Assembly: GCF_041146345.1 (NCBI RefSeq) | Contig: NW_027191404.1 | Span: 1,736,001-1,800,000 of the forward strand | DNA: 64,000 nucleotides | Source of the DNA: Neodothiora populina | Taxonomy: Eukaryota | Direction of reading: 5' to 3' | Shown: positions 53,137-55,341 of the stretch, piece after piece | Layout: each line of letters begins with the position of its first letter | Numbering within the stretch: position 1 is the first letter of the stretch | Notes under the pieces: model-generated | Told to the model about the DNA's origin: nothing | What the model saw: the letters and a program-made list of their open reading frames with translations, nothing else | The model's database searches: none | Made by a program: the position numbers and the translations under genes

Positions 53137-53667
53137 TTTGTCGGTTTGTCGGGGTTGTCGATGGGTGTCGTTGGGTGGTGGTGACGAATTCCAAGTGAAA
53201 TCGGCGTCGTCAAAATTGACAGGATGTCGTGGGGGATTTCTGATTGCAAATCACAAGTCACGTGCCGAAGTCTTGGCGCCGCCACCTCTCGGTGCATCAC
53301 TTTACAGTGGGCAGCCTGCTTGATTTATCATGATGGATTTCCAAGCAAGGTGGCTGCCCTGAAATTATGACATGCACCATGTCGGCTGTATGACATCTGC
53401 GTTCATCAGGTATAGCCGACCACTCACATGCGACTGTGTCCGTCTACTATATTCGTACGGCTTATTCACAAACGGGAATGCTCCAGACTGCGCCAGCATA
53501 CATTGCGACTATATCACTTGTCGAAGATTGTCACATCACAGCTTGATCTACACAAGAAAGAAGAAAGAAAAGTTTCAGGCGAGTTGGCAAAATGGGGTAT
53601 CTTTTTATTTTTGAAGTCTACCTTCACACTATCACCAACCCGTCCGGCGTCACACTGAGCGATTGAC

Positions 53668-54183
53668 CTAAGCAGTGGACTGGGAGAGGATGTCGGAGTC
53701 ACCAGCATCAATGATGGCCATGGTGGAGCAACGGAAGAGCTTACCGCAGGCGGTACCGAGCTCAATCTACAACATATGTGGTCAGCCAAAGGTGTGCTCT
53801 CCAAAGCCCGGGCTGAGGCTTCTTCGCAGAGCGAGTAAGTAGCCCTACTCGCCCGGAGGCCAGTCGCTGGGCTATATTCAAAATGGGGTCTTACGTTGTT
53901 GCCGTTGAAGTGGTGGACGGCAGTCTTGGCGAGCATGGAGTAGTACTCGAGCTCAGACTTGCGGAGAGGAGGGGTGTTGCCAGCAATGATGATGAGCTTG
54001 GCCTTGCCGCTACGGAGAGACTTGAGGGTAGACTTGTATCCGAGGGTGACTGTGCTATGTGTCAACGACTTGGGCGCTTCGCGAGATGTGCGATTATCCA
54101 GCTTTCGTACCCTTTCCGGACTTCATAACAAGCGCGAGGCGCGAGTTGATGGAGTCGGAGGTCTTGGTCTTCTTGGGGGCCAT
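53668..54183 (-). CDS. RPL30: 60S ribosomal protein eL30
   Basis: Exons 54183-54111, 54049-53895 and 53766-53668 give [66 protein letters not shown]...[32 protein letters not shown]. Confidence 0.97.
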
Positions 54184-54234
54184 CTCTGCGGTAATTGACT
54201 TGAGTGCTGGGTCGTAGTGGGTTCCGCTCCGGTC
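54178..54234 (-). promoter_or_regulatory. L30e-binding kink-turn in the RPL30 mRNA leader, overlapping the AUG
   Basis: The minus strand reads GACCGGAGCGG (54234-54224) ... CCGCAGAGAUGGCC (54191-54178). This matches the S. cerevisiae RPL30 autoregulatory element GACCGGAGUG...CGCAGAGAUGGUC. Confidence 0.85.
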
Positions 54235-55039
54235 TGTCGTTGCTGAAGATGGGAAACAAAAGAAAGTCTTGAGAGGAAAGTGTTGATGAAGATTCAATGT
54301 GTGGAGTGGAAGTCTGTGCGCCCGAACCCGCCTCAAGCGAAAAGAAACCGCAGGGTAAAAAGCTTGGCAGGTCCCGATCGTCCATGGAAACCTAAAGGAG
54401 AGCGAACCCCTTTAGGGTTTGGCATAAAATAAATGGATTAACGAACAATCACCGCTTCACCGACAATACGATAACAACAACCGCGAGACATGCCGTGAGC
54501 ATGAAGAGACTCGGTGAGGCTTGACTGAAGACTCAAGGTCTATGGGAGGCCACTAGATTGGAGTTATAGATACCTTAGAGACTTGTATGGTGGAAGCTGT
54601 ACAAGTACAGTAGATGCGAAGCCTGACTTGAGGCTCTTTTAAACGAAACAATATCTCACCTTTATTGAGTATCAACAATACTTTACTGCAGTAATCCAGC
54701 TGTGTGATTGTTCTCTACTTACTCTACCGTATCTCTTCTGGTACATGGCCTAGCTACTTACAGTACACGCACATGCTCAGAAGCTCGGTGCATCTGCTCT
54801 TAGCTCACCCTTGGTCGTTGGCTCCCGTCAGATAATAACAATAATAATAACAATAATCTTTAAGAGGGTAGTACCGAAACATAAACTCCACTACCGGCCC
54901 CTCGCAATCATACGAGGTTTCACTCTGTCAGATCCCGAGTGCAGTCCATGTTACCCCTCGCTGTCACTGTCAACATGCACCTTACTCGATAGTGATAGAC
55001 TAATATTACCACTACCGCTTTACCATTACCACTATCGCC

Positions 55040-55080
55040 TTACCACCACCACCACCACCACCACCACCACCACCACCCAC
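55040..55080. repeat. (ACC)n microsatellite upstream of the coiled-coil gene
   Basis: About 11 ACC units. An (ATA/ACA)n tract lies at 54832-54857. Confidence 0.9.
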
Positions 55081-55341
55081 TACCCACTACCGCCGCGCCC
55101 AGAACGTGTCAGCTTGACGTGGCAGTGGTGTCTGTCTTCAGCCTTGATTCTCACCTCACCTCTACTCCTGCCGTCTCTGCCTGAGGTGTTGTACATTGCT
55201 GTTGTTGTCTCCGTTCGAGAATCATAAGTGTGCCGCCAACATTGTTGTCTCCACTCATTCGCTACCTACGAGTATTATAATTCCAGGAGTATTGATCAAC
55301 AACAACGTTAACAAGGTCATTCAATTCGTCTCTCTCCTGTC

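Follow-up and report, generated by a model that had tools for sequence, protein, structure and literature searches.

The eL30 gene and its protein

The window (i.e. the whole stretch of DNA that was analysed, 64,000 nt of Neodothiora populina, NCBI RefSeq assembly GCF_041146345.1, contig NW_027191404.1, positions 1,736,001 to 1,800,000 of the forward strand) carries on its minus strand a gene for ribosomal protein eL30 (RPL30), which has three exons and is located downstream of the leader that is the subject of this analysis. Exon 1 (54111..54183; 73 nt, i.e. 24 codons plus 1 nt) opens with the start codon ATG, read directly at 54183..54181, and is followed by intron 1 (54050..54110; 61 nt, GT..AG), exon 2 (53895..54049, located by its matches to PDB eL30 chains), intron 2 (53767..53894; 128 nt) and exon 3, which includes the stop codon (53668..53766, located by alignment to the yeast chain 1t0k_B). 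The first intron joint (54049>54111, with 61 nt skipped, GT..AG on the minus strand) is present in public contigs of all four runs, while the second (53766>53895) was seen in contigs of runs X1 and X12. These spliced contigs put the first 5' splice site at +74, which is 70 nt 3' of the G of the AUG and agrees with the preliminary description of this DNA, according to which the first intron starts 73 nt into the coding sequence.

Exon 2 matches PDB eL30 chains with E values of 6e-24 to 8e-21, the yeast chains 1t0k_B and 1ck2_A included, and the best full-length PDB matches of the protein are 7r81 and 7olc, which, like the short introns of the gene, agree with a fungal origin. Between exon 3 and positions 76-102 of 1t0k_B the alignment is gapless and places residue 11 (F) of the exon on position 85 of the yeast chain, F85 being the main RNA contact of yeast L30 (PMC3706390). 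Exons 2 and 3 are both covered by gapless alignment to L30 of 1t0k, the entry of the yeast L30-mRNA complex, and, judging from these alignments, the trans factor eL30 is conserved.

Kink-turn anatomy around the start codon

Two short stretches of the leader, which read exactly as the preliminary description had given them, would, by prediction, fold into a kink-turn. Its 5' (non-bulged) strand, GACCGGAGCGG (54224..54234, minus strand), was located by sequence, by a strict pattern and by a covariance-model match, and consists of CCG (one half of the NC stem), GA (the sheared partners 2n and 1n) and GCGG (one half of the C stem). It is followed by an A/C-rich loop of 32 nt that is closed by the C stem (54192..54223, minus strand), and then by the 3' (bulged) strand, CCGCAGAGATGGCC (54178..54191, minus strand), located by sequence, strict pattern and covariance model as well. 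The bulged strand can be divided as CCGC-AGA-GAUGG-CC, i.e. the other half of the C stem, a bulge of 3 nt, the sheared G and A, and then the U and GG of the NC stem.

The pairing that follows from this is the one described earlier, namely a stem GCGG/CCGC, an AGA bulge, tandem A.G/G.A pairs, G.U and two C-G pairs, with the AUG inside. As far as sequence can tell, the C helix is made of 4 Watson-Crick base pairs and is positioned 5' of the bulge, and the AGA bulge is directly followed by the tandem sheared pairs G(1b).A(1n) and A(2b).G(2n), in which G(54184)-A(54183) are opposite A(54228)-G(54229). The NC helix starts with U(3b).G(3n) and continues with two G-C pairs, beyond which there is an A/C mismatch and possibly one more G-C pair. 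The AUG of eL30 takes up kink-turn positions 2b, 3b and 4b, so that its three nucleotides would be held in the sheared A.G pair, the U.G pair and the first C-G pair of the NC stem, respectively. No upstream AUG is present in the visible eL30 leader. The element, as a sequence-level prediction, is a textbook kink-turn in its anatomy, and a complete one.

The kink-turn of yeast RPL30 is presumably near-identical in sequence, with a U.G pair in the stem and a splice site directly after the AUG. Compared to yeast, the window differs in its first 5' splice site (at +74) and in the second pair of the C stem, which is C-G, as had been noted. The fourth C-stem pair also differs, being G-C in the window versus C-G in most of the metagenomic relatives considered below.

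Transcription of the 5' strand

A kink-turn can form in the RNA of this gene if its 5' strand is transcribed, for which public sequencing runs were considered. The best share of the window's sampled words in any run was 0.14 (none reached half), and the contigs of these runs count as those of relatives. A contig of 382 nt from run X1, belonging to a close relative, spans 53669 to 54234 with neither of the two introns. It contains 10 substitutions and 3 gaps in 124 nt of leader and exon 1; the four of these 10 substitutions that are listed affect the loop, a wobble position or exon 1, and the others may include bases of the kink-turn. The contig is best explained as cDNA (the run was labelled RNA by guess), and as it lacks introns and reaches 54234, the mature transcript of that relative would include the 5' strand. 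The earlier assumption that the 5' strand is transcribed is hereby supported in a close relative, by a spliced, cDNA-like contig whose end at 54234 carries no information on where transcripts begin.

The minus strand is rich in pyrimidines directly upstream of the 5' strand, where it contains the tract CTTTCCTCTC...TTTCTTTTGTTTCCCATCTTC (~54241-54290). Such tracts are typical of fungal core promoters, and its position suggests that transcription may start a few nt before the kink-turn. Further upstream, at a distance of ~205-235 nt from the AUG, the minus strand contains AAACCCTAAAGG ... CCTTTAGGTTT (54388-54419), an inverted repeat that is imperfect and includes the telomere-repeat-like CCCTAA; sites like this one presumably resemble the Tbf1-type sites of fungal ribosomal-protein promoters.

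Conservation and covariation

The strict pattern (CCGGA and a stem of at least 3 pairs, followed downstream by the other half of the stem, NNN and GATGG) would occur about once in 199 kb by chance, as estimated from 20 shuffles (counts of 0-3), i.e. ~0.7 times per window when both strands are considered, and one match alone therefore means little. The sole strict match on either strand of the 64-kb window is, in fact, positioned exactly on the eL30 AUG. The pattern was also searched for in 80 eL30 loci, which are metagenome contigs that encode a relative of exon 2 and were picked without reference to the leader; 'fungal-type' is used for them in the sense of protein similarity and intron style only. 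It is present at the eL30 AUG in 30 of these loci, which represent 26 distinct sequences, and no other match was seen on the forward strands, compared to 3 (2 distinct) on the reverse strands, which served as 198,893 nt of control DNA. That a strict match falls on the eL30 AUG in the window and in 30 out of 80 loci is far beyond chance. L021 is the sole further locus with both anchors at the AUG, its stem being shorter than 3 bp, which means that the pairing filter removed one out of 31. A relaxed pattern with degenerate anchors gave hundreds of irrelevant matches and was dropped.

For covariation, the 26 distinct hairpins were aligned together with that of the window (27 sequences), in which the MAFFT columns are out of register at the distal hairpin (P2). 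The C stem varies in a compensatory way: pair 9-69 is GC in 24 sequences and GU in 3, pair 10-68 is CG in 23, UG in 3 and AU in 1, and pair 11-67 is GC in 22, AU in 4 and UA in 1. Pair 12-66 is CG in 17 sequences, GC in 1 (the window, a double change) and UG in 1, and is of another kind or unpaired in the remaining 8. The covariation score of the C stem amounts to 0.183 versus 0.096 ± 0.012 in shuffles (0 out of 500 reach 0.183), changes on both sides are found in 16 cells versus 6.2 ± 1.9 in shuffles, and every slid control scores lower. GATGG and CCGGA, the G.A pairs and the three NC pairs are invariant in all 27 hairpins, but these were the selection criteria. In addition, start codon, Kozak context and the Met-Ala codons all put constraints on GAUGG, and its invariance is for that reason not independent evidence. 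De novo prediction with RNAalifold returned just the C and NC helices, at a weak energy of -1.15 kcal/mol. The bulge reads AGA, AAC, AAA, CGA, TAC or TAA across the loci, always with a purine in the middle, which is position -3 of the Kozak context.

A covariance model was built from the 26 distinct metagenomic leaders, leaving out the window, with a rough calibration. In the 64 kb (both strands, E up to 10) it gave a single match, at 54177-54235 on the minus strand (34.5 bits, E 1.9e-07). In the 80 loci it gave 33 matches, 30 of which are training sequences or duplicates of these. Two of the others are new matches at the AUG (L014, which is cut by the contig end, with 38.1 bits, and L021 with 37.5 bits), and the last, in L080, is a weak match away from the AUG (E 0.49). 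Overall, the element is present at the eL30 AUG in 32 of the 80 metagenomic loci, and by the covariance model it is absent in the other 48, at least 15 of which have a mapped Met-start and at least 130 nt of upstream sequence.

Judged by the model, the element is common, not universal, among eL30 genes and is dispensable in many lineages. Where it is present, the aligned leaders predict a conserved and covarying structure of the kink-turn type on the AUG of many fungal-type eL30 genes. Alignment of related leaders had been proposed earlier as a check, and as carried out here on metagenomic relatives it turned out in favour of the element, both in its occurrence and in the covariation of its C stem.

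Folding of the free leader

Minimum free energy (MFE) programs ignore sheared pairs, and the MFE structure of the leader contains no kink-turn and has no excess stability (z +1.45). The hairpin of the window has a predicted energy of -3.6 kcal/mol, versus -3.9 kcal/mol for shuffles (z +0.16), and z is below -1.5 in 10 of the 27 sequences. Neither was significant structure predicted for the 206 nt of leader, exon 1 and intron 1 together (z -0.24). A plain MFE result is what would be expected of a motif that is built on non-canonical pairs and counts neither way. In these predictions the leader would not be stably folded alone, which fits with folding that is induced by a protein.

In many of the relatives, the 3' strand is immediately preceded on its 5' side by a distal hairpin of 5-8 bp, the sequence of which differs by locus, with stems such as CAAGAT/ATCTTG, CTACT/AGTAG, CAGGAA/TTCCTG, TAGGAA/TTCCTA and GAAGTC/GACTTC. 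It was observed in L008, L009, L011, L012, L016, L017, L019, L022, L023, L025, L028, L032, L043, L045 and L074, and is absent in the window and in its nearest relatives L006 and L024. Since the C stem of the window consists of 4 bp that close an unstructured loop of 32 nt, without the distal hairpin, its affinity may be low.

Position of the first splice site

Among the loci that bear the element, the distance between the A of the AUG and the first 5' splice site varies widely. It is at +4 in L030, at +5 in L020 and L033 and at +8 in L073, then at +40 in L027, +42 in L074 and +59 in L019, and in most element-bearing loci it is found at +61 to +86, as in the window. In L039 it is located as far as +149, and in L014, L043 and L045 there is none within 180 nt. 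The kink-turn is kept irrespective of the position of the intron, and the AUG inside it is the constant feature. A 5' splice site within or directly next to the kink-turn, which is the yeast-type arrangement, is not found in the window, and the preliminary description was right in setting the element apart from the first 5' splice site, given the offset of +74. L020, L030 and L033 do resemble yeast, in their 5' splice site (+4/+5), in a U.G pair at the second position of the C stem and in an AGA bulge. As the module persists from +4 to beyond +180, an action that does not depend on the splice site is favoured, most likely translational repression by free eL30.

The exon-1 peptides of L006 and L024 match that of the window over all aligned residues (23/24 for L006), and the first 5' splice sites are at +69 in L006, +74 in the window and +84 in L024. 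The differing offsets point to intron sliding or to alternative sites among these close relatives.

Relation to known motifs

Li and Breaker (2017; BMC Genomics 18:785, PMC5640933) reported an 'rpl30 motif' in the 5' UTRs of L30 genes of filamentous ascomycetes, with 47 examples in 26 species. Its hosts include at least Ajellomyces, Arthroderma, Aspergillus, Botryotinia, Chaetomium and Coccidioides, as well as at least Gibberella, Leptosphaeria, Magnaporthe, Myceliophthora and relatives of Neurospora. The motif is described as a large hairpin with a conserved purine-rich internal loop, for which autoregulation by L30 was proposed. Yeast is cited there (as 'L32') as a precedent only, references 89, 90 and 92 being papers of Vilardell and Warner and of Li et al. 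1995; for L30/RPL30, Vilardell and Warner 1994 is also cited in PMC11585973. In the passages of PMC5640933 that concern the motif, it is not named a kink-turn, nor said to contain the AUG, nor to be the orthologue of the yeast site.

The element of the window is likewise located in the 5' UTR of a fungal L30 gene, where it overlaps the AUG, and likewise has a purine-rich internal loop (GA opposite AGAGA), the distal part of the hairpin being absent. The metagenome-based model has the same architecture as the rpl30 motif, the two probably being identical to judge by the text description in that paper, and in the published 'large hairpin' the distal hairpin of the relatives probably makes up the upper part. 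In S. cerevisiae, RPL30 (formerly RPL32) has a kink-turn that is formed from the leader and the AUG region, like that of the window, and yeast L30 binds this kink-turn in its own pre-mRNA and mature mRNA, through which splicing or translation is controlled (PMC3706390, PMC11585973). The best explanation, on comparison of these architectures, would be that the element is a case of the fungal rpl30 motif and corresponds to the autoregulatory site of S. cerevisiae RPL30.

A more distant parallel exists in archaea, where L7Ae represses translation via a kink-turn in its own leader that folds only upon binding (PMC6298567). Here too, a protein of the L7Ae family acts on a kink-turn in the leader of its own mRNA, and the RNA is expected to be unfolded in the absence of the protein (PMC5539422, PMC6298567). 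It differs in that it concerns another domain of life and another protein and, according to the abstracts, has no AUG inside the kink-turn, which makes it an analogy of mechanism only.

In the literature searched, the term 'rpl30 motif' was found only in Li and Breaker 2017, and there was no paper that joins eL30, kink-turn, autoregulation and fungi. A search of Rfam 15 with positions 53500-54600 (E up to 10) did not return a family for the leader. It did return two C/D-box matches antisense to exon 2 (17.7 and 13.9 bits), which are far below gathering and were rejected as chance. One of these, to the archaeal C/D-box sR32 (53985-54051, plus strand), has 17.7 bits versus a gathering threshold of 40 (E 0.042) and is caused by ATGATGA, which stems from K-L-I-I-I codons.

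The preliminary description regarded the element as a feedback circuit conserved in a filamentous fungus. This interpretation is reasonable, whereas its novelty was overrated, since it had in substance already been proposed in print, as autoregulation by L30 (PMC5640933). The present analysis makes some modest additions: it spells out the anatomy of kink-turn and AUG, links the element to the yeast site and shows that it does not depend on where the intron lies.

Proposed function and alternatives

The most plausible function, which we consider probable though by no means certain, is that excess eL30 binds the leader and makes the kink-turn form, by which the start codon would be sequestered near the 5' end and initiation would fall. 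The free leader RNA would be essentially unfolded and translated. Once more eL30 is present than ribosome assembly uses, the protein would bind the leader and induce the kink-turn, which would tie up all three nucleotides of the AUG near the 5' end, the A in the sheared A.G pair, the U in the U.G pair and the G in a G-C pair. A scanning 43S complex would then be blocked, or be unable to read the AUG, and the synthesis of eL30 would fall. The putative binding and repression, as well as the level at which eL30 would act, are taken over from yeast, while it is the sequences themselves that show the anatomy, its conservation and the lack of any dependence on intron position.

Alternatively, the action could be nuclear, with bound eL30 inhibiting the splicing of intron 1 at a distance or causing retention or decay, and with translation not being the target. 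With the first 5' splice site of the window located 70 nt further downstream, the site is unlikely to be occluded directly as it is in budding yeast. However, in yeast U1 can still bind in the presence of L30, whereas U2 is blocked (PMC11585973), which is not simple 5' splice site occlusion, and in S. pombe one rpl30 paralogue lowers the splicing of the other (PMC4695336). Moreover, with an exon 1 of 73 nt and a tiny intron 1, a bound protein would be within ~70-130 nt of all splice signals. Nevertheless, the element is conserved in loci without an intron in the first 149 to more than 180 nt (L039, L014, L043 and L045), no significant long-range structure between leader and intron is predicted in the 206-nt fold mentioned above, and it is the AUG itself that is always embedded, which together make a nuclear action unlikely. 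That the structure is real and has another role seems more unlikely still; it could be bound by another ligand of the L7Ae family (Snu13, Nhp2 or similar), several members of which recognise kink-turns (PMC3706390), or it could constitutively tune mRNA stability or the choice of the start site. Against such a role, the element is found on eL30 genes only, with a single model match in the 64-kb window and all matches in the loci located at the eL30 AUG except for the weak one in L080 (E 0.49), and in the yeast precedent the ligand is eL30 itself.

Finally, the conserved letters might reflect a DNA-level element (a core promoter or transcription-factor site) combined with Kozak and coding constraint, or mere chance, without any RNA structure. 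CCGGAG is indeed located near the likely transcription start, GATGGC is constrained by the AUG and an Ala codon, and roughly one strict match per window is to be expected. Such an explanation does not account for compensatory changes between strands that are 6 to 50 nt apart, for the same position on the AUG in 32 loci, or for the presence of the 5' strand in a spliced contig, and we deem it highly improbable. The preferred reading remains that of translational repression by excess eL30.

A wider, more tentative possibility, to which we give somewhat less than even chances, is that eL30 feedback in ascomycetes has this module, a kink-turn with the AUG inside, as its ancestral and conserved core, which acts on translation, and that control of splicing exists only where an intron is located at +4 to +8. 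The rpl30 motif would then be a true orthologue of the yeast site and not a parallel case. If true, the textbook 'splicing autoregulation' of RPL30 would be a lineage-specific add-on to an older translational switch.

Autoregulation of ribosomal proteins has been well mapped in bacteria and in budding yeast and hardly tested in filamentous fungi. The locus and its 32 relatives offer a compact, mutable test (~57 nt) of whether eL30 feedback survives without an adjoining splice site, which would show whether translation is the conserved target. As a candidate motif from 2017 is hereby tied to the solved yeast L30-RNA complex, precise mutants can be designed. There is also a modest practical value, in that fungi could be equipped with the element as a small translational switch that responds to a protein.

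Other sequence features

Upstream of the eL30 gene, trinucleotide-repeat tracts are found at ~54830-54890 and 55040-55110 (e.g. (CCA)n-like at ~55040-55108), which translate as runs of I/Y/T and H/P/T/W/G in all frames. In the metagenomic loci L053, L055, L059, L060, L062, L064 and L066, a conserved block, CAGCGGCGTTTCACACGCTTAAGAAGGCTGT, is located ~40-90 nt upstream of the eL30 start. These eL30 loci are non-fungal-looking, and the block may represent an element of promoter or leader in another lineage of eukaryotes.
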